A stretch of 58,398 nt of DNA from Thermodesulfobacteriota bacterium (GTDB lineage: Bacteria > Desulfobacterota > Desulfobaccia > Desulfobaccales > 0-14-0-80-60-11). The stretch spans positions 1 through 58,398 of the forward strand of contig JBFLZI010000002.1 in NCBI GenBank assembly GCA_040756315.1, written 5' to 3'. The notes beneath the pieces were generated by a model, which was not told where the DNA came from, searched no databases, and saw only the letters and a program-made list of their open reading frames with translations. The position numbers and the translations under genes were made by a program. Shown in pieces: positions 3,220 through 50,635 of the stretch. The stretch's first letter is position 1. Each line of letters starts with the position of its first letter.

Positions 3220-3944
3220 AGATGCATCGTCTTCTGCTCAAAAACTTGACCAAGAGTTATAACGGCCGCAAGGTCGTGGATAACGTGTCCCTGGAGCTGA
3301 AGAGCGGGGAAGTGGTGGGCCTTCTGGGTCCCAACGGCGCCGGCAAGACCACCACTTTTTACATGGTGCTGGGGCTCCTCAAACCCGACTCCGGCACCAT
3401 TTACCTGGACGGGGAAGACATCTCCGAGCTGGCCATTTATCTCCGGGCCCGCAAAGGGGTGCAATATCTGCCCCAGGAGCCTTCGGTCTTCCGGAAGCTG
3501 ACCGTGGCCGAAAATATCCTGGCCATTCTGGAAACCCTGGAGCCTAACCCGGATATCCGCCAGGAGCGCCTGGAAAAGCTCCTGGGGGAGCTGCGCATCT
3601 CCCATTTGGCCCAGCAAAAGGCCTCGGTGCTGTCCGGGGGGGAACGCCGCCGGGTGGAGATTACCCGGGCATTGGTCACTTCTCCTTTCTTCATTATCCT
3701 GGACGAGCCTTTTTCCGGCATCGACCCCCTGGCCGTCACCGATATCCAGAATATTATCCGCCAACTGAAAGACCAGGGTCTGGGTATCCTGGTCTCCGAC
3801 CATAATGTGCGGGAAGCCCTGGGGGTGTGTGATCGCGCCTATATTTTAAGTGAGGGAGTCGTCCTGGAAGAAGGAACCCCGGCCCATCTGGTCCAAAGTG
3901 AGGTAGCCAAAAGGATTTACTTGGGAGAAAGCTTTAAGTTATAA
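3216..3944 (+). CDS. lptB: LPS export ABC transporter ATP-binding protein
   Basis: Walker A GPNGAGKTT, signature LSGGERRR, Walker B FIILDEP. An ATG at 3222 is an alternative start. Confidence 0.93.
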   Translation: MKMHRLLLKNLTKSYNGRKVVDNVSLELKSGEVVGLLGPNGAGKTTTFYMVLGLLKPDSGTIYLDGEDISELAIYLRARKGVQYLPQEPSVFRKLTVAENILAILETLEPNPDIRQERLEKLLGELRISHLAQQKASVLSGGERRRVEITRALVTSPFFIILDEPFSGIDPLAVTDIQNIIRQLKDQGLGILVSDHNVREALGVCDRAYILSEGVVLEEGTPAHLVQSEVAKRIYLGESFKL

Positions 3945-18303: not shown

Positions 18304-20322
18304 TTAGGCAGGCACTTTTTTAGTAACCGCCTCCTCTATTTCTCTTAATTGGGTGCACCATTGGTCTATTTCCTTCAAAAGATCAGAGGGGCTGTTGGCG
18401 GCCAGAGTTTGGAAAAGCACCCGCCCAGGATGGAGGCCGGCTTCCACTAAAAGGGCCTGGGCCTGTTCCGTCCGCCAGTGGGCGTGAAGGTTGCCCCGGT
18501 GCGATCGGCAATTCTCCGGATGGCAGGCCAGCACCAGGACCCCGGCGGCCCCCATGGTAAAAGCCTTCAAGATAAAGTCCAGGTCGATTTTGCCGGCGCA
18601 GGGCAATTTAAACGCGGTGAAGCCCAAGGGGAGCACCCCCTGCTCCAGTTTCAGGGCTGCCTGGTAGGCGATCCAGGCTGAGTTCCGACACATGAAGGCA
18701 ATGATTCGGGGGTGGAGTCTGGGGTCCAGGTTTTCCAGCTCGGCGAACATCTGCTCATCGCTGTAACTGCTAAAGTGGATGGCGTTATTGGGACATTCGC
18801 TGGCGCACAGGCCGCAGCCCTGGCAGTCCAGGTCCCGGATCAAGGCCCGGTTGTCCCAGGTAATGGCTCCATGGGGGCAGAGGCGATAACAGGTGAGACA
18901 CAGGACGCAGCGGCCCCGGTCCACCGTGGCCTCGGCCTTGGGGCCGCGGCGGTGGCCCCGATCCAGGAGTTTGCTGACCTCCAGGGCGGTGGCCTTGGCT
19001 TCTGTCAGGGATTCAGGCAATTCCAGGACGCCGTGTCCCGGCCCCACCACAAAGATGCCCCGGCGGTTGGTGACCCCGGCCAGATGGTGCACATTCTCCC
19101 CCTGGAGAAACCGGGAAGGGGCCGGACCGATTTGCGTGAGGAGGGAGAGAAACTGGTTTTCGGGTGCTCCGTAATAGTTTTCCTCCACCACCACCACGTC
19201 AGCCCGAATCTCCAGGGGCCGAAGCAGGATAGGGTCCCGAAAGCCCAACTTTATGCCGTCTTTTTCAGGCACAATCTCAGGCGTCTCCTGAAGTTTATAA
19301 AGGAATAGTCCTGCGGCCAGGGCGTTCTCCAGGGCCTCCTCCAGGCCGGGCGCCGCCACCTGGGCCTGCCCCAGAAACAGGTGCACCTGCCGGTTTCTTG
19401 AAAGCAACCGGGAGGCTGCCCCCAGGGCGCGACGCAGACTCTGGGGGCAGGTGTCCCCGGCCAACCCCAGGAGGAAGGCGGCCACTCCCAAGGGGGGGTG
19501 ATCCGTCTCCGGTTCGGAAAGAAGGAGGCTTTCCAACTGGGTCTGGGAGAGGAGCCGGGGCTGGGGAGAGAGCCCATAGCCGGCAAAATTGGCAGTCAGC
19601 CTGAACTCCGGGGCCAGGATGACGGCCCCCACCCGTTCTTCCCGTAGGCCGGCCCCGGTCTTGATTTGCACCGTAAAGTTGCCCGCGCCTCCCGCCAGGT
19701 CCATGATGCTTGCCTCCCAAAGCGGCTGGATCAGAGCCTGGGCCTGGACCTGGTTGAGGAGGGGCATCAGGTCCGGGGGAGGCGTCTCCGGGAGGGCCGA
19801 CCCCGGCGCGGCCAGAATCACTTCATGATCCTGTTGGGCCAGCTCCAGGGCGGCCTGGCAAGCGGCCCAGGAGTCCCCCCAGACCAGGACCCGGGAATTC
19901 ATCGGAAAATCCTGGAATTCTGTAGGATGGGCCTGGGCTACCCGGGTGGCGGCCAGGTAAATCAACTCCTGGGCTTTGATGAGGACATATTTGGCGTGGG
20001 GATATTGCAGGGCCTCATAGAGGTCCACCAGAGCCAACAGCCCCGGGTTTAACCGGAATTTTTCCAACAATAGATTGATGGTAGCGCGTCCCCGCCAGAG
20101 CGGGTCCAGGCCCACCAATACTACCGGATGCCGTTTGCCTTTGAGCAAAAAGGCCCTCAGGCGTTCTTCCTGTTCAAGCTCTGGGAGGGCCGGGTCCAGG
20201 GCCAGCACCCTGGTCTGGGAGAGACCCGCGGTCCACAAGGCCAGTTCCGGAAAGTCAAACCAACCGACGTCGGTCTCAAAACTGTAAAGAAATATGATTT
20301 CAACAAGTTGGGCGAATTTCAT
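18304..20322 (-). CDS. multidomain Fe-S protein: about 450-aa N-terminal region of unclear family, 2x[4Fe-4S] ferredoxin domain, and C-terminal MvhD/FlpD domain
   Basis: 672 aa. Ferredoxin motifs CVLCLTCYRLCP and CQGCGLCASECP. The MvhD-like tail is IIAFMCRNSAW...LPCAGKIDLDFILKAF..GAAGVLVLACHPENCRSH. Confidence 0.7.
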   Translation of the reverse strand: MKFAQLVEIIFLYSFETDVGWFDFPELALWTAGLSQTRVLALDPALPELEQEERLRAFLLKGKRHPVVLVGLDPLWRGRATINLLLEKFRLNPGLLALVDLYEALQYPHAKYVLIKAQELIYLAATRVAQAHPTEFQDFPMNSRVLVWGDSWAACQAALELAQQDHEVILAAPGSALPETPPPDLMPLLNQVQAQALIQPLWEASIMDLAGGAGNFTVQIKTGAGLREERVGAVILAPEFRLTANFAGYGLSPQPRLLSQTQLESLLLSEPETDHPPLGVAAFLLGLAGDTCPQSLRRALGAASRLLSRNRQVHLFLGQAQVAAPGLEEALENALAAGLFLYKLQETPEIVPEKDGIKLGFRDPILLRPLEIRADVVVVEENYYGAPENQFLSLLTQIGPAPSRFLQGENVHHLAGVTNRRGIFVVGPGHGVLELPESLTEAKATALEVSKLLDRGHRRGPKAEATVDRGRCVLCLTCYRLCPHGAITWDNRALIRDLDCQGCGLCASECPNNAIHFSSYSDEQMFAELENLDPRLHPRIIAFMCRNSAWIAYQAALKLEQGVLPLGFTAFKLPCAGKIDLDFILKAFTMGAAGVLVLACHPENCRSHRGNLHAHWRTEQAQALLVEAGLHPGRVLFQTLAANSPSDLLKEIDQWCTQLREIEEAVTKKVPA

Positions 20323-20346
20323 AAGTCATTCACTGAGGAAATATTT

Positions 20347-21654
20347 CTAGTGGCCGGCACCTACTTGTTCCCTGATCTGTTCCGGGTCCGGGGCGCGGCG
20401 GCAAGTTCCCTCCAGGTAGCGATGTACTCTCCAGGCGGCCGCGGTGGCCTGGGCGATACTCTCGGGAATGCTCAGGGGACCTAGAGCGGCGCCCGCCAAA
20501 AAAACGCCGGGTTGGCCGGTGGTGGCCCGCTCCTCGGCATCCGCCGGTTGGAAAAAGCGCTCCGGCGTCAACTCCAGGCGCAGCATACTCCCTAACGTCC
20601 GGTTATCCTGTCCGGCCCCCATTCCCACTGCCAGCACCACCAGATCGAACTCTTCAAACAGGGCTTGGCCCGTGGACTCCTCCACATAACGGACCTTGAC
20701 GGTCCCGCCCGCGGTCCCGGCCACAATTCCCGGCAAGGCCCGGATAGTGGTGATTTCCTCCTGGACGGCGGCCAAAAACTTCCCGGGAGTTTGACCCACA
20801 TTCTGGAGGTCCATGTAAAAAGTGGTGACCTGGCAGTCCGGCCGGCGATGTTTAATGAGCCGGGCCAGCCTCAGGGTATAGGCGCAGCAAACCCGGGAAC
20901 AATAAGGATGGCGATGATTCCGGCTGCCGACGCACTGGATGAAGGCCACCCGGCTTAGCTGTCGGCCCCCACCCGGAAAGAGTTGTTCAAACCCATGGCG
21001 GAGCAGGTTTTCCAGCTCCACTCCGGTGATTACTCCGGGAACGTAACCGTAACCATAGTGACTCAGCTCCCGGGGATCAGCGGGCTGATAACCGGTGGCC
21101 AGCACCACCGCCGCCACCGTCAGGTCCAGTTCCCGTTCCCGTTGGTTCAAATCGATGGCCCCGGTGGGACAAAGGTCGGCGCAAACGCGGCAGGACCCTT
21201 CCAGGAAATGCAGGCAATGCTCCGGTAAAATGGCGTACCGGGGGTGATGCGGCACCTGGGAGGTGGTCATCACCGCCCCCGCCTCAGCCGCGGGACACTC
21301 GCTGGCGCACAGGCTGCAATTGATACAGCGCTTAGGGTCCACCAGCAGCGGCTGCCCCTTGAGAGTGCAGCGGAATCGGCCGTTTTCCCGCCGACAGGCG
21401 ATGAGTTGCGATTGGGTCTCGATCTTAAGACGCGGTGCGGCAAACAGGTCGAGGAGACACTGCTCCACCAGGCAGGCGCCGCATTTCTGGCAGGTGTCGG
21501 TAGCCTTGCAGGTGAAGTGCGCCGCCCGGCCTCCCAAAAAAGGGCCTTTTTCCGCTAAGATAACCGTGTGGCCCAGGCGGGTCAGCTCCAGGGTCGCGGT
21601 GATGCCGGCAATGCCACCGCCCAGGACCAACACCGGATTCTCTAAAGGTTTCAT
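20347..21654 (-). CDS. HdrA-like FAD-dependent oxidoreductase with Fe-S motifs
   Basis: Dinucleotide fold VLVLGGGIAGITATLEL, Cys clusters CQKCGACLVEQC and CINCSLCASECP, and CVGSRN..PYCSRVCC typical of HdrA. ATG 21654 preferred; the track start is 21696. Confidence 0.75.
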   Translation of the reverse strand: MKPLENPVLVLGGGIAGITATLELTRLGHTVILAEKGPFLGGRAAHFTCKATDTCQKCGACLVEQCLLDLFAAPRLKIETQSQLIACRRENGRFRCTLKGQPLLVDPKRCINCSLCASECPAAEAGAVMTTSQVPHHPRYAILPEHCLHFLEGSCRVCADLCPTGAIDLNQRERELDLTVAAVVLATGYQPADPRELSHYGYGYVPGVITGVELENLLRHGFEQLFPGGGRQLSRVAFIQCVGSRNHRHPYCSRVCCAYTLRLARLIKHRRPDCQVTTFYMDLQNVGQTPGKFLAAVQEEITTIRALPGIVAGTAGGTVKVRYVEESTGQALFEEFDLVVLAVGMGAGQDNRTLGSMLRLELTPERFFQPADAEERATTGQPGVFLAGAALGPLSIPESIAQATAAAWRVHRYLEGTCRRAPDPEQIREQVGAGH

Positions 21655-21716
21655 AATATTATCGCTTTTCCCCCAGGACCTCCAAGCACGCGACACCTAA
21701 AACCTGACACCTGCCC

Positions 21717-22601
21717 CTAGAGGCCCGCGGCTTTAAGGACCAGGTTGATCAGGTCAACCCGGCCCCCGGCCTTCAGATAAGCCCCCTCCGCCAGGTTTTC
21801 CGCCTTGATCCTTTTGAGAAGGCCGCCGGCCAGCTCCGCGGCCCGGCGAGAAAATTCCTCCCCTTCCAAGTCCTTCAGTTCCGACAAAAATTCCAGGGGA
21901 ACCCGGAAGACCTGGCGCCACTCCTCCGTGTCAGCCTGGGCTGCTTCCTCCAGGGAGAGGACCTTCACCGTAGCCAGAAGTTTAACGGGATTAGCGGCCA
22001 GGGACTGGCGAAAGGCCCGCAATCTCTCCAAATCAAAGACCGGCGGGGTGACGAAAAACTGCGCCCCGGCCTTGACCTTTTTCTCGAATTTCAGAAGTTG
22101 GGGCGCTAGCGGCTCGGCTTCGGGGATGACCACCGCGCCCAGGAAAAAGTTGGGAGCGCCGTCCAGGGTCAGACCGGCGCTGTCCCGGCCTGCGGCCAGG
22201 TCCCGGGCGATTTGCAAAAGCTGCACCGAATCGGCGTCATACACCGGCTTGGCGTCGGGGTGGTCCCCCAGGGTGACGTAGTCGCCGCTCACCACCAGGA
22301 CGTTTTCTATCCCCAGGGCCGCGGCCCCTAATAGCTCGCTCTCCAGGGCCAACCGGTTCCGGTCCCGGCAGGTGAGGTGCCAAAGGGGCTCTCCCCCGGC
22401 TTCTTGGGCCAGCCGGCTTACCGCCAAGGCCGAGAGGCGCATCCGGGCCTGCTCGTTGTCCGGCACCCCGAACGCGGTGACCCGGTCCTGGAGCGCGGCT
22501 ACCAGAGCCAGCATACCTTCCACCCGCACCCCCTTGGGGGGCTGGAGTTCCGCCACCGCGGCAAAGGCGCCGGAATCCAAGGCCTCCTTAAGCTTGCTCA
22601 T
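21717..22601 (-). CDS. metF: methylenetetrahydrofolate reductase (MetF, acetogen/SRB type)
   Basis: 294 aa with an MTHFR TIM-barrel-like sequence (CRDRNRLALESELLGAAALGIENVLVVSGD). Overlaps the metV stop. Confidence 0.85.
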   Translation of the reverse strand: MSKLKEALDSGAFAAVAELQPPKGVRVEGMLALVAALQDRVTAFGVPDNEQARMRLSALAVSRLAQEAGGEPLWHLTCRDRNRLALESELLGAAALGIENVLVVSGDYVTLGDHPDAKPVYDADSVQLLQIARDLAAGRDSAGLTLDGAPNFFLGAVVIPEAEPLAPQLLKFEKKVKAGAQFFVTPPVFDLERLRAFRQSLAANPVKLLATVKVLSLEEAAQADTEEWRQVFRVPLEFLSELKDLEGEEFSRRAAELAGGLLKRIKAENLAEGAYLKAGGRVDLINLVLKAAGL

Positions 22602-23274
22602 GAGCGCCGTATCTCCTCTTGTAGGCCGGGTGGATGACCTTCCCGGGGGTAGTGCGCTTTTGGTAAGGGTGCAGGGGCAAAATCCCCTGGAACTGTTCCA
22701 GCCGCCCTTGCCTTTCCAGGCGATAAAAAATGTCGCACCAGGCGCAGGTGTTCTCGGGATTCACTTCGCAACGCCCATTGAACATGCCGCCGCACGGCCC
22801 GTTCAACAACCCCTTGGGACACATGGTCACCGGGCAGATGCCTCCCGTCACCCCCAGGTAGCAGTGATTGCAGGCCAGGCACCGCTCCGCGTAATGGCCG
22901 GCCTCCAGATTGACGCCGATGAAGCTCGTGTTGACTGCCGGGAAGATAGGCTTCATGTAACACAACTGTCCCAAGTCCTGCACTCCGGCCCCGCAGGCCA
23001 TGGAGATAATGCAGTCATAGTCGGCAATGAAGTCGCACAGGGGCTGGATGAACTCCAGGTCACACTGGCGCTCCACGGTGATTTCCCCCACCTCGAGGTG
23101 CCGGCCTCTCAGGCCCGCCGCCAGCTTGAGCTGGGAAGCCAGCAATCCCACTTCTTTTTCTCCCCCCACCAGGCACACGGCCACGCAGGTGCCGCAGCCC
23201 AAGATAAGGATCTTTTCATAAGGGGCCACCGCGGCCGCGATTTCCGCAAAAGGCTTTCGTTCTGCGATAATCAT
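22588..23274 (-). CDS. metV: MetV-like zinc-ribbon/Fe-S subunit (MTHFR C-terminal-like domain protein)
   Basis: 228 aa with a Cys-rich tail CLACNHCYLGVTGGICPVTMCPKGLLNGPCGG..GRCEV. Located directly upstream of metF. Confidence 0.75.
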   Translation of the reverse strand: MIIAERKPFAEIAAAVAPYEKILILGCGTCVAVCLVGGEKEVGLLASQLKLAAGLRGRHLEVGEITVERQCDLEFIQPLCDFIADYDCIISMACGAGVQDLGQLCYMKPIFPAVNTSFIGVNLEAGHYAERCLACNHCYLGVTGGICPVTMCPKGLLNGPCGGMFNGRCEVNPENTCAWCDIFYRLERQGRLEQFQGILPLHPYQKRTTPGKVIHPAYKRRYGAHEQA

Positions 23275-23276
23275 GC

Positions 23277-23732
23277 TTAAATCCCACCTCCCTGCTGTTC
23301 CGGAAGGTCGGCTGCCGGGCGCCGGCCCCCTTTCAAAGGATTAGGGCCCAACGCCTTTATCCGGGCGGTCATCTCCCTGACCACGGCCACCCACTTGTGA
23401 GCATCCGAGGCGGCCACTTCGTACATCTCCAAGCGGCCCCGCCCCAAACCGATCTCTTCCAGCAGGTGTTGGGCGTATTCCACCCGCTCCCGGGCCCGAA
23501 GATTTCCTTCCAGGAAGTGACAGCTCCCGGCCTCGCAGCCGCTCACCATCACCCCGTCGGCCCCGGCCTCGAAGGCCTTCAAGATATGCAGCAGGTCGAT
23601 GCTGCCGGTGCAGAGGTATTTGACGATGCGCACCGTGGCGGGATACTGCATCCTGGCCGAGCCGGCGATGTCCGCGGCCGTGTAGGTGCAGTAGGTGCAG
23701 ACAAAGGCCAGAATTTTCGGGACCCAAGCCAT
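23277..23732 (-). CDS. mvhD: MvhD/FlpD-type [2Fe-2S] electron-transfer subunit
   Basis: ILAFVCTYCTYTAADIAG...YLCTGSIDLLHILKAFEAGADGVMVSGCEAGSCHF. Start set at ATG 23732, preceded by GGAAGGA. The track ORF extends to 23759. Confidence 0.85.
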   Translation of the reverse strand: MAWVPKILAFVCTYCTYTAADIAGSARMQYPATVRIVKYLCTGSIDLLHILKAFEAGADGVMVSGCEAGSCHFLEGNLRARERVEYAQHLLEEIGLGRGRLEMYEVAASDAHKWVAVVREMTARIKALGPNPLKGGRRPAADLPEQQGGGI

Positions 23733-23743
23733 ATTTCCTTCCC

Positions 23744-23778
23744 AAAGTTCAAAGTTCAAGGTTCAAGGTTCGAAGTTA
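23744..23778 (-). repeat. tandem heptamer repeat in the hdrA-mvhD spacer
   Basis: Plus strand reads AAAGTTC AAAGTTC AAGGTTC AAGGTTC GAAGTTA. On the mRNA this is (GAACYUU)x4, ending 11 nt before the mvhD ATG. Confidence 0.7.
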
Positions 23779-23781
23779 ACC

Positions 23782-26700
23782 TCACGATGCCGCCATCTCC
23801 CCCAGGTCAATGGCGCAAATCTTGGCAATGAATTGCCGGTCCCGGCTGTGCATTACTTCGATGGCCTTCCGGGGACAGGCGCTGGCGCAACTGCCGCAAC
23901 CATGGCAGGCTGCCGGGTCGATGTCCACAACGCCTTCGGCCACATTAACCCGGGGCACCCCGAAGGGGCAGGTGCGCAGGCAGGTCAGGCAAAGCACGCA
24001 GTGCTGGGGGTCCACCGCGGCCACCGCGCCCCCCACCCACATCACTTTCCGGGCTAAGATGCCCAGGGCCCGGGCCGCGGCTCCTTGGGCCTGGGCGATG
24101 CTCTCGTCAATGAACTTGGGACTGTGGGCCAACCCGCACAGGAAGATGCCGTCGACGGCTAAATCCAGGGGCCTGAGCTTCAGGTGCGCCTCCATCAAGA
24201 AGCCGTCGGCATCGAAGGGCAGCTTAAAGACTTGGGCGATCTCCCGGCTCAGGGGGTGGGGACGGGTGGCCGCGGCCAGGGTCAAATAATCCACTGTCAG
24301 CCCCAGGGTGGCTCGGAGATTCTGGTCGAAAACCGAAACTTGGAGGCCCTCCCCGGCGGGGGTCACCTCGGGCTTACGATCAGTCTCATAGCGGATAAAT
24401 TGCACCCCTAAGTCACGAGCCTTTTTGTAGTACAGCTCTTTTAAGCCATAAGTGCGGATATCCCGGTAGAGAATAAATACCTGGGCCCGGGGGTTGGCCT
24501 CCTTGATTCTGATGGCGTGCTTGATGGCCTGGCTGCAGCATACCCGACTGCAGTAGGGGTGCTCCGGCTCCCGGGAGCCGACACACTGGATCATGGCCAC
24601 CCTGGGCGCGCCCTCCAGGAGATGCGGCTCCCGGTCCAGAAGCTGGTCCAACTCTATTAAGGTCAACACCCGGGGATGCTGGCCATACATATATTCGGAG
24701 GGCCGGTATTCGATTCCACCGGTGGCGATGACCGCCACCCCATAGGCCAGTTCCCGCTTTTCCGTGGGGTACTCCAGCAGGCTCCTGAACTTGCCCACCT
24801 GCCCGGAGAAACTTTTTACCCTGGTCAAGGGCCACCAGCGGATGCGGGGATGCTCGTCCACCCGGCGGAAGCATTCCTGAATGTAGGCCTGAACATCATG
24901 GCCCTCCAGGGTAAAATGGACTTTGTGGGCCAGCCCTCCCATGCCGTAGTGGTCCTCCAGGGCCGCCAGGTGCACCTGGTAGCCGGCGTCGGCAATGGTC
25001 AAAGCCGCGGTCAGGGCCGCCAGACCGTTGCCTACCACCAGGGCGCTCTGATTCACTTGGGAGGGAATTTCTCTGAGGGGGTCCAGGAGCGCGGCCCGGG
25101 CCACTGCCATTTTTACCAGTTCCTTGGCCTTCGCCGTGGCGAGCTCAGGTTCGGCCTGGTGTACCCAGGAATCCTGGTCCCGGATGTTGGCCATCTCAAA
25201 AAGGTACTTGTTGAGTCCGGCTTTGCGCAGGTTATCCTGAAAGAGCGGCTCATGCGTCCGGGGACTGCAGGAGGCCACCACCACCCGGTTCAGCCCTTCG
25301 GTTTCAATCACTTCCCGCATCTTTTCCAGGGAGTCGGTGGCGCAGGTGAAGGGATAATGGTGGGCATAGGCGACCTGCGGCAAGGTTGCGGCGTATTCTG
25401 CCACCCGGGCCACGTCCACCACCCCGGCGATATTGATGCCGCAATGGCAGACAAAGACCCCGATGCGGGGCTCCTCCGTAGCTACTTCCCGTTCCGAGGG
25501 AAATCCCTTCTTGGTGAGGAGAGTGCCCCGGGCCTCCCCCAAGAGAGCCGCGGCCGCCGCACTAGCCGCGGAAGCCTGGACCACGGTCTCCGGGATATCT
25601 TTGGGAGATTGATAAGCCCCACAGGTGAAAATGCCTTCCCGGGTGGTGGAGACCAGGTGAAATGGCTGGTTTTTCACAAAGCCGTAAGGGTCGGTCTCGA
25701 TGCCGCAGACCTGAGCCAATTCCCGGGCGGCCGGATGGGGGCTTAACCCCACTGAGAGTACCACCAGATCGAATTCTTCCGCCTGGATGCTACCCGCTTC
25801 ATCCGCATAGGCGATTTCCAGATTGCTGGTGCGGGGGTCCTGGGTCACCCGGGAGATCATGGAGCGGATAAAGCGTACCCCGTGCACATCCCGGGCCCGT
25901 TCGTAGTAGCGATCAAATCCCTTGCCCTGAGCCCGGAAGTCCAGGAAAAAGATGGCGGTCTCCACCTTAGGGTCATGTTCCCGAGCAATGATGGCCTGCT
26001 TGGCGGCATACATGCAACACACATAAGAGCAATACTCCCGTCCGATGCTGGCGTCCCGGGAACCCACGCACTGAATCCAGGCGATTTTTTTAGGGTCCGT
26101 CCCATCACTGGGCCGGCGGACGTGCCCGGCGCAGGGTCCGGTGGCGGACAGCAAACGCTCGAATTCGAGAGAGGTGATCACATTGGGATAGCGGCCATAG
26201 CCGTACTCGGGCTTTAACCGGGCGTCAAAGGGCCGAAAGCCTGGGGCCAGGATGACCGCGCCCACCTGGATCTGCCGTTCCGTGTCTGACTGAGACAGGT
26301 CCACCGCCTGGGTCGGGCAGAATTTCTCACAGGCCCGGCACTTGCCATCTTTTTGAAAATAAATGCAGTTGTCCTGGTCGATGGCGTACTTCAAGGGCAC
26401 CGCCTGGGGATACCGGATATAGACAGCCTTGCGGAAGGTCAGGCCCTCGTTGAAGGCGTCTTTCACTTTTTTGGGGCACTTTTCGGCGCACACGCCGCAG
26501 GCGATGCACTTTTCCGGGTCGATGTAACGGGCTGGCTGAAGGAGCTTCACCGTGAAGCTGCCCGCCTCCCCACTAACTTCAGCCATCCTGGCGGGGGCGA
26601 TGATCTCGATGTCCGGGTGCTGGGCCACCTCGATTAATTTGGGGGAAATGAGGCAGGTGGAGCAGTCATTGGTAGGAAAAGTTTTATCCAACTGGGCCAT

Positions 26701-26865
26701 GACCCCGCCGATGGAGACGTCTTGCTCCACCAGATAGACCTTGAAACCGGCGCCGGCCGCGTCCAGGGCGGCCTGCATGCCGCCGATGCCGCCTCCCACC
26801 ACCATGACGGCCCCAATTTTTCCCTTCTTTTCTTTGAGAGACATGGGGCATCTCTTACTAAACAT
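23782..26865 (-). CDS. hdrA: heterodisulfide reductase subunit A-like flavoprotein, extended 1027-aa form
   Basis: VVGGGIGGMQAALDAAGAGFKVYLVE, FPTNDCSTC, CVGSRD...YCSYVCC, and four ferredoxin-type CxxCxxCxxxCP motifs. A second Rossmann-like segment (VVGNGLAALTAAL) and a second CVGSRE..PYCSRVCC are also present. Confidence 0.9.
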   Translation of the reverse strand: MFSKRCPMSLKEKKGKIGAVMVVGGGIGGMQAALDAAGAGFKVYLVEQDVSIGGVMAQLDKTFPTNDCSTCLISPKLIEVAQHPDIEIIAPARMAEVSGEAGSFTVKLLQPARYIDPEKCIACGVCAEKCPKKVKDAFNEGLTFRKAVYIRYPQAVPLKYAIDQDNCIYFQKDGKCRACEKFCPTQAVDLSQSDTERQIQVGAVILAPGFRPFDARLKPEYGYGRYPNVITSLEFERLLSATGPCAGHVRRPSDGTDPKKIAWIQCVGSRDASIGREYCSYVCCMYAAKQAIIAREHDPKVETAIFFLDFRAQGKGFDRYYERARDVHGVRFIRSMISRVTQDPRTSNLEIAYADEAGSIQAEEFDLVVLSVGLSPHPAARELAQVCGIETDPYGFVKNQPFHLVSTTREGIFTCGAYQSPKDIPETVVQASAASAAAAALLGEARGTLLTKKGFPSEREVATEEPRIGVFVCHCGINIAGVVDVARVAEYAATLPQVAYAHHYPFTCATDSLEKMREVIETEGLNRVVVASCSPRTHEPLFQDNLRKAGLNKYLFEMANIRDQDSWVHQAEPELATAKAKELVKMAVARAALLDPLREIPSQVNQSALVVGNGLAALTAALTIADAGYQVHLAALEDHYGMGGLAHKVHFTLEGHDVQAYIQECFRRVDEHPRIRWWPLTRVKSFSGQVGKFRSLLEYPTEKRELAYGVAVIATGGIEYRPSEYMYGQHPRVLTLIELDQLLDREPHLLEGAPRVAMIQCVGSREPEHPYCSRVCCSQAIKHAIRIKEANPRAQVFILYRDIRTYGLKELYYKKARDLGVQFIRYETDRKPEVTPAGEGLQVSVFDQNLRATLGLTVDYLTLAAATRPHPLSREIAQVFKLPFDADGFLMEAHLKLRPLDLAVDGIFLCGLAHSPKFIDESIAQAQGAAARALGILARKVMWVGGAVAAVDPQHCVLCLTCLRTCPFGVPRVNVAEGVVDIDPAACHGCGSCASACPRKAIEVMHSRDRQFIAKICAIDLGEMAAS

Positions 26866-37203: not shown

Positions 37204-37845
37204 ATGAAGCTCACCATCGTTTATGACAATGAGGTGGATCAAGCCGGCCTGGAGGCCGATTGGGGGTTTGCCTGCCTGGTGGAGGCGGACGGCCGGCGGT
37301 TGCTCTTTGACACCGGGGCCAGAGGGGCGCTGTTGGTGCACAACCTGGAGAAGCTCCATCTGGCTCCGGGGCAGATCCCGGAAATTTTCATCTCCCACGA
37401 TCATTGGGACCACCTGGGGGGCCTGGAGGAAATTCTCCGGCTCAACCCGCAAGCCACGGTTTTCCTCCCCAAGTCCTGCTGCGAGACTTTTGCGGCCCGG
37501 CAGGTGGTCAGGGTCCAGGGGGCCTGCGGCCTCTCCCGGATTTTCTTTTCCACCGGGGAACTGCGCAACGTGGAGCAATCCCTGGTGGTCAAGACGAACG
37601 GCGGCCTGGTAGTAATTTGCGGCTGTTCTCACCCCGGAGTGGGACCTATCCTGGCAGCCGCCTCTCAGTTCGGACGAGTCTCGGCTCTGGTGGGCGGCCT
37701 GCACGGTTTCCGGGAATTCGAGCAGCTCGCTGACCTGGCCCTGGTCTGCCCCTGCCATTGCACCAGGCACAAAGAGGAAATTATGGCGCTCTTTCCGAAG
37801 ACCGCGGTGCGTGGCGGGGCCGGCAAAGTACTGGAGATTCACTAG
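37204..37845 (+). CDS. MBL-fold metallo-hydrolase (short COG1237-like form)
   Basis: FDTGARG, and the metal motif [10 protein letters not shown]. Confidence 0.8.
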
Positions 37846-38089
37846 CAAGAAGGCGGCTCTGGTCCAAAGGGAAGGGAGTCTTGGCAACCCGCCCCTTGAC
37901 CTGGAATCAACCGTCCGGGTGGATGGCGTTCCAAAAAATGGACTTTGCGGTTTAAGGGAAGAGAGGCAGAAGAAGATGGCGGAACAACCTTCAGATAAGT
38001 GCGTGAGCCCGGCTAAGGGGCCGATCCTGACCAAGAAGACCGGACAAGCGGAAGGCTCCGGCATTTCACCTGGCAGGGAGGAACAGAAG

Positions 38090-38683
38090 ATGGGAGCGAA
38101 AGTCGGCAAACCGGCCCCGGACTTTGAGGCCGCGGCCTTTATCAATGGTGGTTTCAAAAACATCAAGCTCTCCGATTATAAAGGAAAATGGGTAGTGCTG
38201 TGCTTTTATCCGGGTGATTTCACCTTTGTCTGACCCACGGAACTGGCGGCAGTTGCCGCCAGATATAAAGAGTTTCAGGACTTGGGGGTAGAATTCCTGT
38301 CCATCAGCACCGACAGCCGCTTCAGTCATAAGATTTGGCAGGAAGAAGAGCTAAGCAAAATGGTGCCCGGCGGGATTCCCTTCCCCATGTTATCTGACCC
38401 CATGGGACTCATCGGGCAGGTGTACGGCGTCTTTGATGAGGAAGGCGGGGTGGATATCCGGGGCCGGTTTATCATTGATCCGGATGGCGTCATTCAAGCC
38501 GCGGAAACCTTGAGTCCACCGGTGGGCCGCAATCCTGCCGAGTTGCTCCGGCAGATCAAGGCTTATCAGCATGTCCGGGCCACCGGGGAAGTCTGCCCTT
38601 CAGGTTGGCAGCCGGGAAAATCTACTTTGAAGCCCGGTCCCGCCCTGGTAGGGAAAGTCTATCAGTGCTGGCAGCCGGAATAG
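38090..38683 (+). CDS. 2-Cys peroxiredoxin (AhpC/Prx family) with selenocysteine (TGA 38231-38233) at the peroxidatic position
   Basis: Two same-frame track ORFs join through one TGA. The joined sequence [16 protein letters not shown] matches the Prx motif FYPxDFTFVCPTE. Resolving-Cys region EVCPSGW. RBS GGGAGG 9 nt before the ATG. A hairpin lies downstream of the TGA. Confidence 0.85.
38243..38262 (+). promoter_or_regulatory. candidate bacterial SECIS hairpin (Prx)
   Basis: CTGGCGGC-AGTT-GCCGCCAG. Perfect 8-bp stem with GU in the loop. Starts 10 nt after the TGA. Confidence 0.65.
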
Positions 38684-38761
38684 GCTTGCCGACGGCCCAT
38701 GAGCACAAGTGCGGGCTGCGGTTGTCTGTGCTTAATTTACTTTTAGCCAAGGAGAACCACC

Positions 38762-39022
38762 ATGAAAGGCAAGCACGAACATAAGCATTTGCACTCCCAT
38801 GAACACACGCACGTCCACGGTCATGAGCACCGGCATGGAGACGAAGTCCACCTGCATGAGCACGCCCATACGCACACCCACGAGCATTTGCACGAGCACT
38901 CCCACGAGCATAGCCATGCCCAAGACTCCCACGTGCACGACCATGAGCACTCCGGGGAGCATGGTCCTCATGACCATGAGCATCCGGCCCACGACGCGGA
39001 GATGCACGAACATTCGCATTGA
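38762..39022 (+). CDS. histidine-rich metal-binding protein
   Basis: 86 aa, of which 35 are His, mostly as alternating HxH. RBS AAGGAGA. Lies upstream of a ZIP transporter gene. Confidence 0.75.
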   Translation: MKGKHEHKHLHSHEHTHVHGHEHRHGDEVHLHEHAHTHTHEHLHEHSHEHSHAQDSHVHDHEHSGEHGPHDHEHPAHDAEMHEHSH

Positions 39023-39135: not shown

Positions 39136-39450
39136 ATGCCGAGATATTATGGTCCACGTCAGTATGCCAGAGGTCCTGGCTGGGGACGGGGCTTCGGGTT
39201 CGGGAGGGGATACGGCGGCGGTTGGTGTTGGTGGCCGCGGCGATCCTGGTGTCTGGGCTGGGGAGGGTGGGGGCCGCCCCCCTTTTGGGAGGCTGGCCCA
39301 TATGGACCCGGGCCTTATTGGGAAGAGCCGCCCTATGAATCTCCTCAAGAGGAACTGGCCGACCTTAAAGAGCAGGAAGCATCTCTCCGGAAGGAATTAG
39401 CAGCCGTTCAGACACGCCTGGCCGAACTGGAGAAAGAGGCCTCGGGTTAG
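39136..39450 (+). CDS. DUF5320-like protein: Gly/Arg/Trp-rich N-terminal region plus C-terminal coiled coil
   Basis: MPRYYGPRQYARGPGWGRGFGFGRGYGGG... followed by ELADLKEQEASLRKELAAVQTRLAELEKE. Paralog of the ORF at 45200. Confidence 0.7.
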   Translation: MPRYYGPRQYARGPGWGRGFGFGRGYGGGWCWWPRRSWCLGWGGWGPPPFWEAGPYGPGPYWEEPPYESPQEELADLKEQEASLRKELAAVQTRLAELEKEASG

Positions 39451-39528: not shown

Positions 39529-40266
39529 ATGCTGGCCTGGATCATCTTTTTCAGCCTGCTGGGAAGCGTGGGGGCTCTCTTGGGGGCGGCCCTGGTCCTG
39601 ATCTTGCCGGAAAAGTTCCGGAAATTTCTGGTGGCCAACCTGATCAGCTACGCCACCGGCACCCTCCTGGGCGCGGTATTCCTCGGCCTGGTGCCCAGAG
39701 CCTTGCAAGAGTCTCCTTCCCCCAGGATACTGGTTTGGCTTTTAGGGGGTATCCTCTTCTTTTTCGTCATGGAGAAGCTGATCCTCTGGCGCCACTGCCA
39801 CCTGCCCGACTGCGACGTTCACGCCAGCGCCGGCCCTCTCCTGCTTATCGGGGACGCGGTCCACAATTTTACCGACGGGGTGATCATCGCCGGGGCCTTT
39901 CTCCTGTCGATGCCTTTAGGCATCGCCACCGGCCTGGCGGTGGTTTCCCACGAAGTGCCCCAGGAGCTGGGAGACTTCGCCATCCTGCTGGAGAGCGGCT
40001 ATTCCCGGGGCCAGGCCCTCGGTTACAACCTGATTTCCGCCCTGGCCACGCTGCCCGGCGCTCTTTTGGGGTACTATTTTTTGGCCCACCTGATGCAGGT
40101 GGTGCCCTATATCCTGTTAATGGGGGCGGCCAGTTTCCTGTATATCGCCCTGGCGGATCTGACCCCGTATCTCCACCGGCGCTTCGGGTTGACGGACAGC
40201 CTGCTCCAGCTTGGCTTAATCCTGGGCGGCATCGCCACCATCTGGCTGTTCCATACCGGGAGTTAA
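39529..40266 (+). CDS. ZIP-family (ZupT-like) divalent metal transporter
   Basis: Multi-pass membrane protein with HNFTDG and SHEVPQELGDF motifs. Confidence 0.88.
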   Translation: MLAWIIFFSLLGSVGALLGAALVLILPEKFRKFLVANLISYATGTLLGAVFLGLVPRALQESPSPRILVWLLGGILFFFVMEKLILWRHCHLPDCDVHASAGPLLLIGDAVHNFTDGVIIAGAFLLSMPLGIATGLAVVSHEVPQELGDFAILLESGYSRGQALGYNLISALATLPGALLGYYFLAHLMQVVPYILLMGAASFLYIALADLTPYLHRRFGLTDSLLQLGLILGGIATIWLFHTGS

Positions 40267-40299
40267 ATTCGCTTGGGGAAAAATTCCCTCGATTTGGCT

Positions 40300-41439
40300 A
40301 TGTGGGCGCGGCTCAAATCTTTTTTGGATTATTGTCAGAGGGTGTGTGGCTTAGAAGCGCCTCGCTGGCAATATCTCCAGGTGGAGGTAACCACGCGCTG
40401 CAACCTGGCGGGGTGCGCCATGTGTCCCCGCACCGCCTGGCCGGAAAGGTGGCAGGCCCGGGATCTGGCCTGGGAAACCTGGGAAGCCCTCATGCCGTCT
40501 CTGAAATTTTTCTCTCAGGTCCATTTAGGCGGCTGGGGGGAACCGCTTTTGCATCCCCGGCTTTGGGATCTGGTCCAGGGCTTGCGGTCTCAAAGGGTGG
40601 AAGTCAGCTTGACCACCAATGGCGTCGGCTTGAGGGAAGAAGCGCGGACGCAAATCCTGGAGCATCTTAATCTGGTTACCATCTCCTTGGATGGGGCCCA
40701 GGCGAAAACTTATGGGAGACTACGTCCCGGCGGCGATTTTTATCGGATCATTGGAAACATCGCCGCGCTTTGCTCCCGGAAGCAATCCCTGGGACTAGCG
40801 AGGCCGAAGGTGGTGCTGCGGTTTTTGAAGATGCGTCCGAACCTGGCGGAATTGCCCGAGTTTCTCAGATTAGCCGCCTCCCTGGGGGTGGACCGGGTTG
40901 ACGCCCCCAACCTGGCCTTTATTCCGGTCCCGGCAATGGAGCCTTTGAGTCTTTTGTCTCCCGGTCCGCCGGACTCCCGGATCAAGGCCATACAGCAGGA
41001 AGCCGAAAGGGAGGCCTGGGCCTTGAAATTGCCCTTCCGGAACTTCAGCCTCTCCCCCAATTTTAACCTGAGAGTCTGTGAGGCCAATCCCCTGGGCCAG
41101 GCCTTCGTCACCGTCTCCGGGGAGGTGGCCCCCTGCGCTTATTTGGGGCTTCCCGTTAACGGCTCATTTACACGTCGGTACTTCAACAAGTCTTATCAGA
41201 CCGGCAATTATTCCTATGGGAATGCCCGGGAGCACGGCTTGCTAAAACTTTACCAGCAACCGGCCTATCTTAACTTTATTGATTATTTTCGGAGTCCGGC
41301 GGAGATATTTGCTCTCTTGCAACCGGTCAGAGACGCTGACCGGCCAGCGGCTGAACCGTCCGGGGCAAGTCCGGTTGCCACCGCCTTAGGCCGCTGGCCG
41401 CCACCCTGTCAGGGGTGCCTGAAAAGCTTGGGGGTTTAG
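40300..41439 (+). CDS. radical SAM protein with SPASM/twitch-like C-terminal domain and a non-canonical Cx4Cx2C cluster motif
   Basis: VEVTTRCNLAGCAMCPR, GGWGEPLLHP. The C-terminal part has CEANPLGQAFVTVSGEVAPC ... PPCQGC. Start uncertain (TTG 40273 or ATG 40300). Confidence 0.75.
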   Translation: MWARLKSFLDYCQRVCGLEAPRWQYLQVEVTTRCNLAGCAMCPRTAWPERWQARDLAWETWEALMPSLKFFSQVHLGGWGEPLLHPRLWDLVQGLRSQRVEVSLTTNGVGLREEARTQILEHLNLVTISLDGAQAKTYGRLRPGGDFYRIIGNIAALCSRKQSLGLARPKVVLRFLKMRPNLAELPEFLRLAASLGVDRVDAPNLAFIPVPAMEPLSLLSPGPPDSRIKAIQQEAEREAWALKLPFRNFSLSPNFNLRVCEANPLGQAFVTVSGEVAPCAYLGLPVNGSFTRRYFNKSYQTGNYSYGNAREHGLLKLYQQPAYLNFIDYFRSPAEIFALLQPVRDADRPAAEPSGASPVATALGRWPPPCQGCLKSLGV

Positions 41440-42795: not shown

Positions 42796-44055
42796 ATGGA
42801 TACGGGTGAACGTCTGGCATTAGCGTCTGTAGCAGTCAACCTTTTGGTGACCGGGCTCAAGTATTTCCTGGGGGTGTTTTCCGGGAGTCTGGCCCTCTTG
42901 GCCGACGCGGTGCACTCCAGCGCCGACGTGGTCTCGTCCGCCTCCATCTGGGCCGGGATCAGGCTCTCCCGGCGCAAGACCAAACGGTTTCCCTATGGCC
43001 TCTACAAGGTGGAAAACCTGGTGGCTTTAATCACCGCGGCGATTATTCTCCTGGCCGGCTATGAGATCGCCCGCAGCGTGTTGTGGGCCGGGGAGAGGGT
43101 CCGGGCGGAACGCCTGCCGTACGCCATTTTCGGAGTGATGGTGATTGTTTTGATTCTCCTGGCCTTTTCCCGCTACGAGCTGAGAAAGGCCAGAGCCCTC
43201 AGTTCCCCCAGCCTGGAGGCCGACGCCCAGCACCTGGGCGCCGACCTGTTTTCTTCTTGCGTCATCCTGGTGGGACTGGCAGGAACCTATTTTCAGGTGA
43301 AATTCCCCCTGGACCGGGTGGCGGCCCTGATCATCGTGGGATTGATCGCCTGGGTGGGGGTGAAAATCGCAGTGGACGCCATCCGGGTGCTCCTGGACGC
43401 CTCCCTGGACTTCCATACCTTGAACACTATCCGGGACATTATCCTTGAGACCCCCCAGGTCAGTAAGATCAACGCGCTGACGGGAAGGAATTCCGGCAAA
43501 TTCAAGTTCATCGAAGCCGACCTGGCCCTTAAGGTCAGGGAGCTCCCCAAGGCTCACTTTATTGCCAATCAAATCGAGGGCCGCATCAAAGCCAGAGTGT
43601 CCAATGTGGATCACGTTCTCATCCATTATGAACCCATTAAAAAAGAGACTCGGGTCATTGCCTTGCCCGTGGCGGCAGATCGGCAGCACCTGTCGGAGCA
43701 CTTCGGGGAAGCGCCTTATTTCCTTTTGCTCACCTTAAAGATTGAAGACGGCAGTCTTTTAGAAGAAACCTGGCAGTCCAACCCCTTTCTAGGGGTGGAA
43801 AAAGGTAAAGGCATCCAGGTGAGCGAATGGCTGGTGAGCCTGGGGATTGACGAAGTGGTCACCGCCAAAAGTTTCGCGCATAAGGGTCCCTTTTACGTCT
43901 TTTCCGACAATGAAGTGGAGGTGCGGCAAACCGAGGGGCAGAGCCTCAAGGAGATCAAGGAATCTCTCATCGGGTCTGCCGAGGCCGGTAGCGCTGGCCA
44001 GGACTTCAGCTTTGGTGGAAATAATCCCCCCATTTACTCAGAAGATAGCCATTGA
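42796..44055 (+). CDS. cation diffusion facilitator (CDF) efflux transporter fused to a C-terminal NifX-like domain
   Basis: CDF membrane and cytoplasmic domains (LLADAVHSSADVVSS, six TM segments). The last ~110 aa or so read RVIALPVAADRQHLSEHFGEAPYFLLL...GIDEVVTAKSF, which matches the Nitro_FeMo-Co pattern. Confidence 0.85.
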   Translation: MDTGERLALASVAVNLLVTGLKYFLGVFSGSLALLADAVHSSADVVSSASIWAGIRLSRRKTKRFPYGLYKVENLVALITAAIILLAGYEIARSVLWAGERVRAERLPYAIFGVMVIVLILLAFSRYELRKARALSSPSLEADAQHLGADLFSSCVILVGLAGTYFQVKFPLDRVAALIIVGLIAWVGVKIAVDAIRVLLDASLDFHTLNTIRDIILETPQVSKINALTGRNSGKFKFIEADLALKVRELPKAHFIANQIEGRIKARVSNVDHVLIHYEPIKKETRVIALPVAADRQHLSEHFGEAPYFLLLTLKIEDGSLLEETWQSNPFLGVEKGKGIQVSEWLVSLGIDEVVTAKSFAHKGPFYVFSDNEVEVRQTEGQSLKEIKESLIGSAEAGSAGQDFSFGGNNPPIYSEDSH

Positions 44056-47382: not shown

Positions 47383-47730
47383 ATGCTCTTTATCATTTCC
47401 AACGGCTTTGAAAAGGCGGGCCGGGCCACCCGGGCCTTCCAATTCGCCAAGGTAGCCAGGGAAAAGGGACATGACGTTAAGGTCTTTCTGGTGGACGACG
47501 CCATCCATTGGGCCCAACTGGGCATGGCCGAAGGGGTCCGGGCCGCCACCGGCGAGGAGATGAAGCCTTTTATCGACTACCTGCTGGCCAACGGCACGGA
47601 GATTGTCGCCTGCAAGGCCTGAGTGGACCACAGGTACTTAACCCCCGATGAAATGATTCCGGGGGTCACTATTCAAGGGGCGCCATATCTCATCGATTTG
47701 ATAGAACGCTATCAGACGATGACCTTTTAA
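47383..47730 (+). CDS. DsrE/YchN-family protein with selenocysteine (TGA 47620-47622) in a CxxU motif
   Basis: The track ORF stops at ...EIVACKA. Reading through the TGA adds VDHRYLTPDEMIPGVTIQGAPYLIDLIERYQTMTF, restoring the C-terminal third typical of DsrE/YchN. The family motif CxxC becomes CKAU. Start is ATG 47383 or GTG 47365/47374. Confidence 0.75.
47641..47666 (+). promoter_or_regulatory. candidate SECIS hairpin (DsrE-like gene)
   Basis: ACCCCCG-12 nt-CGGGGGT. Perfect 7-bp stem starting 19 nt after the TGA. Confidence 0.5.
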
Positions 47731-49279: not shown

Positions 49280-50635
49280 ATGGAAAAAGGACATAAACTG
49301 GTGATCATCGGCATGGGAGGAGTGGGCGGCCCGGCGGCTATGCTCGCTCGCAAGTTACTGCCGGGCGTGGACATTACCGTTATCCGGGAAGAAGACCGCT
49401 TCATCGTCCGCTGAGCCCTCCCCCACGTGGTGGCCGGTGTGGCTACCGTTGACTCCATCACCAATCCGGACCGGATGTTTGAGGAAGCCGGCATCAAGGT
49501 GGTGCTGGGAAAAGTCGTGAAGGCTGACGCGGTCAATAAAACCCTGATGTTGGCGGATGGCGGCACCATCCATTTTGACAAGCTCATCTTGGGCCTGGGG
49601 GCCCGACAGATGATCTCACCTTTGGAGGGGAGTACCCTCAAGGGCGTTTTTACCTTGAGGAGCGCCGCTGACGCCGTGCGCATCCGGGAATATCTCGAGG
49701 CTGAAAATCCTCGTCAACTGATCTTTATCGGCGCGGGTTACACCAATCTGGAAACCGCCTCCTTGCTGATGACCGCCAAACCGGATTACTACCGGGCCAC
49801 CGTCGTTGAACTTATGGAGTATCCTTTGCCCTTGATGCTGGACCGGGACCTGGCCCTGGGGGTTCAGGATTATTTAGCCGAAAAAGGCCTCCAGATGAAA
49901 ATGGGAGAAAAAGCCGCCCGGCTCCTGGGAAACAACGGCCGGGTAGCCGGGGTTGAACTTACCTCGGGGGAACAAATCCCCGGAGATTTTGTTTTGATCG
50001 CGGTGGGGGCCGCCCCTAACCTGGAACTGGCCCAGCAGTTAGATCTGGCCCTAGAAAAATTCGGCATTCAGGTAAATGAGTTTTTGGAGACCTCCCATCC
50101 CGATATTCTGGCCGGAGGCGATTGTGTGGAGAAGCTCCATTTTATCACGAAAAAACCGGTGCTCAGCATGCTGCGCGGCCCCGCCGTCATTCAGGGGCGG
50201 CTCCTGGCCAAACGCCTGGCCGGTTATGCGATTCCTTTCCCGGGAGTCTTGAACAATTCCGCGGTCAGGTTGTTCGACAAATATTTGGGTTCCGTGGGTC
50301 TGACCGAAGACGCGGCCCGCCGGGAAGGGTTCGACCCCATCACGGCTTCGGCGGTCTCCCGCAGTAAACACGGCATGATCCCCGGGGTCAAGCCCTGGAC
50401 CCTAAAACTGGTGTTCGACCGCCAAACCCAAAAGCTCCTGGGGGGGCAGATCATCAGTGACAGCGAGGCGCCGGTGAAGGAGATCGATACGATCAACGCC
50501 CTGATCCTGGGGGGCAAAACCATCCCCGACCTGACCCTCTTGATGTGCGCCGGCACGCCGGACTTGTCGTCCGAACCGAGTCTGGAGCCCATCACGATCT
50601 GCGCCGAGCAGGCGCTGCAAAAAATGCGCGGATAA
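49280..50635 (+). CDS. CoA-disulfide reductase/NADH oxidase-family flavoprotein with selenocysteine (TGA 49412-49414) at the redox-active Cys position
   Basis: ATG 49280 with AAAGGAGA. MEKGHKLVIIGMGGVGGPAAM...RFIVR-U-ALPHVVAG aligns with the SFANCALPY region of CoADR/Nox. Same frame as the track ORF at 49427-50635. The joined protein is 451 aa. Confidence 0.82.
49427..49449 (+). promoter_or_regulatory. candidate SECIS hairpin (CoADR/Nox-like gene)
   Basis: GGTGGCC-GGTGT-GGCTACC (7 bp including one G-U pair, extendable by two wobble pairs). Starts 13-15 nt after the TGA. Confidence 0.5.

Follow-up and report, generated by a model that had tools for sequence, protein, structure and literature searches.

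The stretch of DNA analysed here, 58,398 nucleotides (nt) of contig JBFLZI010000002.1 from a Thermodesulfobacteriota bacterium (hereafter the window), contains at positions 37976 to 38683 of the forward strand what is very probably one gene for a PrxU-type peroxiredoxin. The predicted enzyme belongs to the Prx1/AhpC subfamily, and its peroxidatic residue would be selenocysteine (Sec), inserted at the UGA codon at 38231-38233. The gene, prxU, has 235 codons including the in-frame UGA, which is codon 86, and it ends at a TAG at 38681-38683.

In the list of open reading frames (ORFs) for the window, the gene does not appear as one unit. An upstream ORF, 37811-38233, closes at the TGA, while the same frame continues past it with no further stop before the TAG at 38681-38683. 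This split had been pointed out in an earlier examination of the letters and ORFs only (the sequence-only reading) and is confirmed in the sequence. Read from ATG 38090, the joined frame has 197 codons and carries both FTFV-TGA-PTE and EVCPSGW. The sequence-only reading had taken it for a Sec peroxiredoxin with UGA at the peroxidatic position; family score, orthologues, codon-position statistics and synonymous covariation agree with this.

Assignment to the PrxU family

Family searches were run on the joined protein with Cys written at the TGA. The curated NCBIfam equivalog NF040737 (peroxi_PrxU), which has a cut-off of 270 bits, was matched by the 235-amino-acid form with 371.9 bits over positions 3 to 231 of its 233. 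AhpC proper (TIGR03137, the AhpF-dependent enzyme) scored about 202 bits, below the equivalog cut-off of 272. Both Pfam domains of the subfamily were found: AhpC-TSA (PF00578; E = 1e-40, 138.8 bits) and, C-terminally, 1-cysPrx_C (PF10417; 34 bits). Alignment of the joined translation to Cys-type peroxiredoxins, a check suggested by the sequence-only reading, gave a match to human Prx2 (E = 7e-54) in which the peroxidatic Cys of Prx2 lies on the TGA.

The active-site motif PGDFTFVU (38210-38233, forward strand; PxxxTxxU, with Pro79, Thr83 and Sec86) aligns with FTFVCPTE of Prx2. Three Arg residues (R162, R164 and R185) do not vary in alignment A1 and provide the conserved catalytic Arg. Together with Cys207, these residues make up a complete Prx1-type active site.

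The protein shares its fold and the domains PF00578 and PF10417 with the typical 2-Cys peroxiredoxins human Prx2 (1qmv) and Salmonella AhpC (1yep), and FTFV-x-PTE and EVCP-x-GW align with theirs residue by residue. It differs from them in having Sec for the peroxidatic Cys, Cys for Phe ten residues before it and a 38-residue N-terminal extension, and in falling below the AhpC cut-off (202 versus 272 bits).

PrxU is the Sec peroxiredoxin first described in Eubacterium (Peptoclostridium) acidaminophilum (Sohling 2001, as cited in PMC13188914). Like that protein and the NF040737 family, the window protein is above the cut-off across the whole profile and has Sec in PxxxTxxU, Cys at position -10 and an N-terminal Cys motif. 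In contrast to them, it keeps the EVCP resolving Cys, which is missing from 80 of the 84 family loci described below, and has an additional Cys231 in its tail. Its host is also not a clostridium but an uncultured, Desulfobaccales-related bacterium.

Sec peroxiredoxins had been called rare in the sequence-only reading, a description which does not hold. The family has its own equivalog in NF040737 and was fifth among bacterial selenoprotein families by gene number in a 2006 survey, with members in Syntrophobacter, Syntrophus, Geobacter, Anaeromyxobacter and others (PMC1794560). Sec peroxiredoxins are common in anaerobes, and prxU of the window is a standard orthologue of a long-known, curated selenoprotein family. 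The finding is real and was read correctly, and it is already known.

UGA across the family

A family-alignment scan of one genome per GTDB species matched at least 600 stretches and gave at least 597 confirmed relatives, of which the best 80 were kept. With a second paralogue from one of these loci (L021), the metagenomic contigs L001 and L002 (98% and 87% protein identity to the window, respectively) and the window itself, these make up the 84 loci compared here. Host labels include Thermodesulfobacteriota, Chloroflexota, Ignavibacteria, Acidobacteriota, Zixibacteria, Armatimonadota and Actinomycetota, among others. The best PrxU match among GTDB species representatives is 79% identical.

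At the peroxidatic codon, 83 of the 84 loci have TGA and the remaining one has TGC. Among the species-representative loci alone, 79 of 80 have TGA, and the second L021 paralogue has it as well.

Coding constraint was compared on the two sides of the TGA using the window and L002. Over the 149 codons 3' of the TGA, differences at codon positions 1, 2 and 3 number 14, 13 and 66 (61 synonymous and 19 non-synonymous codon changes). The 47 peroxiredoxin codons 5' of the TGA show the same pattern, with 4, 3 and 16 differences (13 synonymous and 6 non-synonymous changes). It is clear that purifying selection acts in a single frame on both sides of TGA 38231-38233.

Three features of individual homologues concern this codon. 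The sole TGC (Cys) form among the 84 loci, L041 (3226-3285; Acidobacteriota), retains an intact hairpin with a GGUC loop, consistent with a recent replacement of Sec by Cys. A single Desulfobacterales contig, L021, carries two PrxU-type genes (695-754 and 3244-3303), both with TGA; the second copy has Tyr instead of the Cys at -10 and lacks the N-terminal motif. Finally, five homologues from JGI and other sources (P0001-P0004 and P0103) are recorded with Trp at the peroxidatic position (FTFVWPTE). This is most likely an annotation artefact, the Sec TGA having been translated as Trp by the gene caller.

A putative SECIS behind the UGA

The TGA is followed at 38243-38262 (forward strand) by a hairpin made up of CTGGCGGC (38243-38250), the loop AGTT (38251-38254) and GCCGCCAG (38255-38262). 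The perfect 8-bp stem and the AGTT loop are as the sequence-only reading had described them, but the spacer (38234-38242) is 9 nt long and not 10. Folded alone, the hairpin has a free energy of -15.9 kcal/mol (z = -4.5), and none of 200 shuffled sequences was as stable. Only 25 perfect 8-bp hairpins with loops of 3 to 9 nt occur in the whole 58-kb window, so the chance of finding one in the roughly 20 nt behind a given TGA is below 1%. TGA, hairpin and downstream frame recur together in 83 independent assemblies.

The 84 loci align over 60 nt without gaps (A2). Nine proposed pairs were scored in this alignment, and 87.5% of the cells were paired. The covariation score was 0.296, compared with 0.157 ± 0.010 after shuffling (none of 500 shuffles reached it) and 0.08 to 0.12 when the partners were shifted by one to three columns. 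The loop-closing pair 27-30 is AU in 45 loci, GC in 35 and GU in two, and is never unpaired. Pair 24-33 (GC 68, AU 10, GU 4) is likewise never unpaired, and pair 21-36 occurs as five pair types.

The covarying pairs fall on third positions of Leu, Ala and Val codons. Drift in genome G+C content as a cause of the covariation was ruled out by a control over all pairs of third codon positions. Among 190 such pairs, the top three G+C correlations (0.95, 0.82 and 0.77) belong to the three predicted pairs, the others having a mean of 0.07 (standard deviation 0.15) and a maximum of 0.40. Because the three predicted pairs stand out in this way, the hairpin is itself under selection, in its own right, at synonymous sites.

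The bSECISearch consensus for the bacterial selenocysteine insertion sequence (SECIS), in the form quoted in Fig. 2 of PMC13188914, has a loop of 3 to 9 nt on an upper stem of 4 to 16 bp, a G at loop position 1 or 2 with, as a rule, G or U after it, potential pairing between the flanking bases of the loop, 16 to 37 nt between UGA and apical loop, and a free energy of -7.5 kcal/mol or lower. All of these properties are found here. The loop has 4 nt and the stem 8 bp; the loop reads A-G-U-U in the window and AGUU or GGUC in the family, where the outer bases covary; 17 nt (38234-38250) separate the UGA from the loop; and the free energy of -15.9 kcal/mol is well inside the limit. The placement is therefore that of a bacterial SECIS, as had been proposed, with the loop GU at +19/+20 after the UGA. 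The G and U of the loop would be the contact for SelB. Both its geometry and the selection on it support the hairpin at 38243-38262 as a putative bacterial SECIS.

For comparison with the reference element for bacterial Sec insertion, the Escherichia coli fdhF sequence, with its GGUC loop, was confirmed in 5,413 genomes. It too is a hairpin in coding sequence right after a UGA, with a four-base N-G-U-N loop whose outer bases are complementary, as in the AGUU and GGUC loops of the PrxU family. The GU is at +20/+21 in fdhF and at +19/+20 in the window. The stem sequences are unrelated, however; the window copy is without the bulged U of the upper stem and has nothing that corresponds to the lower stem of fdhF.

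Probable selenocysteine decoding in the host

Judged by the isoleucyl-tRNA synthetase (IleRS) encoded in the window, the organism stands close to uncultured Desulfobaccales and to other Thermodesulfobacteriota (78 to 80% identity). Thermodesulfobacteriota is among the phyla richest in selenoproteins (PMC13188914).

Two further genes on the forward strand of the window are candidates for selenoproteins. The first encodes a flavoprotein resembling CoA-disulfide reductase (CoADR) and NADH oxidase (ATG 49280, TGA 49412-49414, stop 50635), which would read ...RFIVR-U-ALPHVVAG... across the TGA. TGA 49412 aligns with the redox-active Cys of the NoxA-3 (6pfz) and CoADR (5l1n) structures and is also present in L002 (5563-5565), and divergence is biased to third codon positions on both sides of it. 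A hairpin follows at 49429-49447, with GGUGGCC-GGUNU-GGCYACC conserved in L002. The CoADR-like family (TIGR03385) is among the selenoprotein families listed in PMC13188914.

The second encodes a DsrE/DsrF-like protein of 115 amino acids (ATG 47383, TGA 47620-47622, stop 47730) with a CxxU motif (...IVACKA-U-VDHRY...). Pfam PF02635 spans its TGA, residues 2 to 115 aligning with positions 4 to 116 of a profile of 116. Here the fold downstream of TGA 47620 is by itself not significant (z = -0.8).

In a screen of 32 TGAs with long open flanks, together with short ones in unassigned regions, only the TGAs at 38231, 49412 and 47620 bridge a family match. The remaining TGA-bridged frames run through real genes in another frame. 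The presence within 58 kb of three genes that are interrupted by TGA and belong to known selenoprotein families is good, if indirect, evidence that the organism decodes Sec, and marks this Desulfobaccales-like bacterium as a probable user of selenium.

Several observations weigh against Sec insertion at the prxU UGA. No selA, selB or selD was found among the approximately 45 ORFs scanned in the 58-kb window, nor was selC, the only tRNA in the window being tRNA-Ala. Rfam gave no SECIS match, either over the whole window at the gathering threshold or in 38180-38330 at E ≤ 10. This carries little weight, no model covering so short a coding-region hairpin having been noticed. Part of the stem also comes free with the peptide, as the codons of Ala-Ala-Val-Ala-Ala are self-complementary. 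For the same reason, three to six of the stem pairs, Watson-Crick and G·U taken together, remain in the four Cys-type homologues (L083-L086) compared as a negative control. In two of these four the loop-closing pair 27-30 is unpaired, compared with none of 82, a suggestive difference in a small sample.

The start of prxU

The position of the start codon affects the length of the enzyme. The sequence-only reading began the protein at ATG 38090, preceded by the ribosome-binding site GGGAGG, and arrived at 197 amino acids. GGGAGG is indeed present at 38076-38081, 8 nt before this ATG (forward strand), which in the longer product is Met39. However, prxU most likely starts at ATG 37976, the next in-frame ATG upstream, giving a product of 235 amino acids. 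The additional 38 residues are encoded by 37976-38089, and a Shine-Dalgarno-like GAGAGG (37961-37966, forward strand), recognized by its resemblance to the consensus only, lies 9 nt 5' of the ATG. The gene is placed at 37976-38683 because the motif in the extension is conserved, because that motif is kept behind signal peptides, and because the same start is called in L001 and L002.

This motif, of the type CVxPAxGP, is encoded within the extension at 38000-38029 (forward strand) and includes Cys9. Its distance to the Sec codon is 74 to 78 residues in at least 70 of the 84 loci; it is nearly universal in the family and is kept across phyla (alignments A1 and A3). It also occurs behind signal peptides in exported Cys-type relatives (P0008, P0012, P0026 and P0042). 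In L001 and L002, independent gene callers picked the equivalent ATG, which gives an upstream piece of 85 amino acids.

Initiation only at ATG 38090, with the upstream 38 codons serving as an untranslated leader to a 197-amino-acid enzyme, is improbable. It would make use of the good GGGAGG at 8 nt, and Met is common, if not universal, at this site among homologues, with other residues there in exported forms. Some family members (L016 and P0094) have no extension at all, and the 197-amino-acid form is by itself above the PrxU cut-off (360.1 bits). Yet the extension is conserved as protein, with its motif at a fixed distance from Sec, and the first 18 residues agree at 15 positions between the window and L002. 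Furthermore, the match of the shorter form begins only at position 36 of the 233 in the PrxU profile, whereas the 235-amino-acid form matches from position 3 and gains 12 bits (371.9). Given its good Shine-Dalgarno sequence, ATG 38090 may be a secondary start to the one at 37976, and both could be used.

Downstream of the gene, a consensus scan found a terminator-like hairpin with a T-rich tail (38707-38733, forward strand), 24 nt 3' of the stop codon. Five such sites were found in the scanned region where 3.8 would be expected, making this weak evidence for a terminator.

Other readings of the in-frame stop

Readthrough of the UGA that does not involve Sec could take the form of near-cognate insertion of Trp or Cys, or of a reassignment of UGA in this lineage. 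The missing Sec machinery in the 58-kb window would fit such readthrough, as would the W placed by the JGI pipeline at the homologous codon in P0001-P0004 and P0103. It is nevertheless very unlikely. The stop codons of the 39 confidently assigned genes in the window are TGA in 14, TAA in 14 and TAG in 11; as TGA ends so many ordinary genes, UGA has not been reassigned globally. With Trp as its peroxidatic residue the enzyme would lose all catalytic activity, and the simplest explanation for the W of the JGI proteins is an artefact of the gene caller's translation table. The hairpin, selected at synonymous sites and fitting a SelB-type SECIS model, also argues for Sec rather than for another amino acid.

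There is even less chance that the TGA is a genuine stop, leaving either a pseudogene or two products, one N-terminal of 85 amino acids and one C-terminal of 133, the latter restarting at TTG 38282. Standard gene callers do cut the gene in just this way in the window, in L001 and in L002, and TGA is a normal terminator elsewhere in the window (14 of 39 other genes). However, the TGA stands at the exact catalytic codon in 83 of the 84 loci and in many phyla, purifying selection in one frame extends over both sides of it, and neither fragment has a complete peroxiredoxin fold or active site. From the TGA to TTG 38282, the first possible restart, there are 16 conserved codons, none of which is a start codon, so the downstream part is not made by re-initiation. 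Orthologues that end at this codon and have an independent downstream start had been named as grounds for rejecting a Sec peroxiredoxin; the orthologues do not behave in this way.

A sequencing or assembly error turning TGC or TGT (Cys) into TGA needs only one base change and Cys-type homologues exist (L041 and L083-L086), but it has next to no probability, since the same TGA is found in the independent assemblies L001 and L002 and in 79 of 80 species-representative loci and the window has two more genes with a TGA that belong to known selenoprotein families; the presence of the prxU TGA in 83 loci across phyla excludes error and lineage-specific pseudogene alike.

With UGA read as Sec in a single gene, the value of the result lies in correct annotation. 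The sequence-only reading had stated that standard gene callers miss the gene, and the split calls in the window and in both metagenomic contigs bear this out. Prodigal-type callers either break the gene in two or put Trp at the UGA, and through such misannotation a main selenoenzyme of peroxide detoxification in anaerobes is hidden in metagenomic catalogues.

Catalysis and the conserved cysteines

Synthesis of the enzyme would depend on the hairpin 9 nt past the UGA, which is predicted to expose GU in its four-base loop. SelB, carrying GTP and Sec-tRNA(Sec), would bind the hairpin and bring Sec to the UGA instead of release factor 2. By analogy with the family, Sec86 would then act as a selenolate that Pro79, Thr83 and a conserved Arg activate, reducing H2O2 or organic hydroperoxides and becoming a selenenic acid. 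This would be resolved by a Cys, the likely partner being Cys207 of the other subunit, and the resulting selenenylsulfide would presumably be reduced by a thioredoxin-type reductant.

Cys207 is the canonical resolving Cys. It is encoded at 38594-38596 (forward strand) within EVCPSGW, which the sequence-only reading had named as the resolving-Cys motif and which aligns with EVCPAGW of human Prx2. The motif is present as claimed but is atypical of PrxU. Across the 84 loci, the canonical resolving position is occupied by Thr in 67, Met in nine, Ala in one and Cys in only four, these four being the window, L001, L002 and L077.

A different Cys is specific to the family. Cys76 of the window protein (38201-38203, forward strand) lies ten residues before Sec, where human Prx2 and ordinary Prx1 proteins have Phe in the aligned position, and Cys is found at this site in 83 of the 84 loci. 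It is conceivable, although rather doubtful, that PrxU proteins resolve the oxidized Sec non-canonically, with the Cys at -10 or that of the N-terminal motif acting as the partner of the selenenic acid or as a relay to the reductant. If so, the window protein would be an intermediate form having both extra Cys residues as well as the classical Cys207.

A shallow search of the searchable literature found no description of the N-terminal Cys motif, and nothing of use on an N-terminal resolving Cys or on the PrxU mechanism. In an AlphaFold2 model of the homologue P0030 the core is confident, but the extension has a predicted local distance difference test (pLDDT) score of about 60 and the linker one below 50, so the model is uninformative about docking of the N-terminal Cys. 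Knowledge of Sec decoding and of peroxiredoxins is unchanged by prxU of the window.

Genomic context

The neighbours of prxU include genes for NifX-like, rubredoxin-like and metallo-beta-lactamase-fold proteins, a His-rich protein, a DUF5320 protein, a ZIP transporter, a radical SAM protein and an ODP-type diiron protein. The arrangement is partly conserved in L001 and L002 and, as context only, suggests a setting of metal and oxidative stress.

Directly 3' of prxU, 38762-39022 (forward strand) encodes a protein of 86 amino acids made up almost entirely of His/Glu/Asp repeats (HEHxH...). It is followed by the DUF5320 gene (39136-39450), the ZIP transporter gene (39529-40266) and a radical SAM/SPASM gene (40273-41439). 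The region around the His-rich protein looks like a metal-handling neighbourhood. Further on, 42796-44055 encodes a fusion of a CDF efflux protein with a NifX-like domain.

Elsewhere in the window, 18304-26865 on the reverse strand carries MetF-like and MetV-like genes (MTHFR and DUF5981), MvhD/FlpD and three HdrA-like genes, the products of which have 1027, 449 and 672 amino acids; the C-terminus of the 672-amino-acid product is VhuD-like. In Thermodesulfobacteriota, HdrA and MvhD are frequently selenoproteins, but here all of their genes are uninterrupted. The adjacent HdrA-like ORFs 20347-21696 and 18304-20322 (reverse strand), of 449 and 672 amino acids, were considered as a possible Sec split, but the stop that parts them is TAG, and they are therefore two genes.

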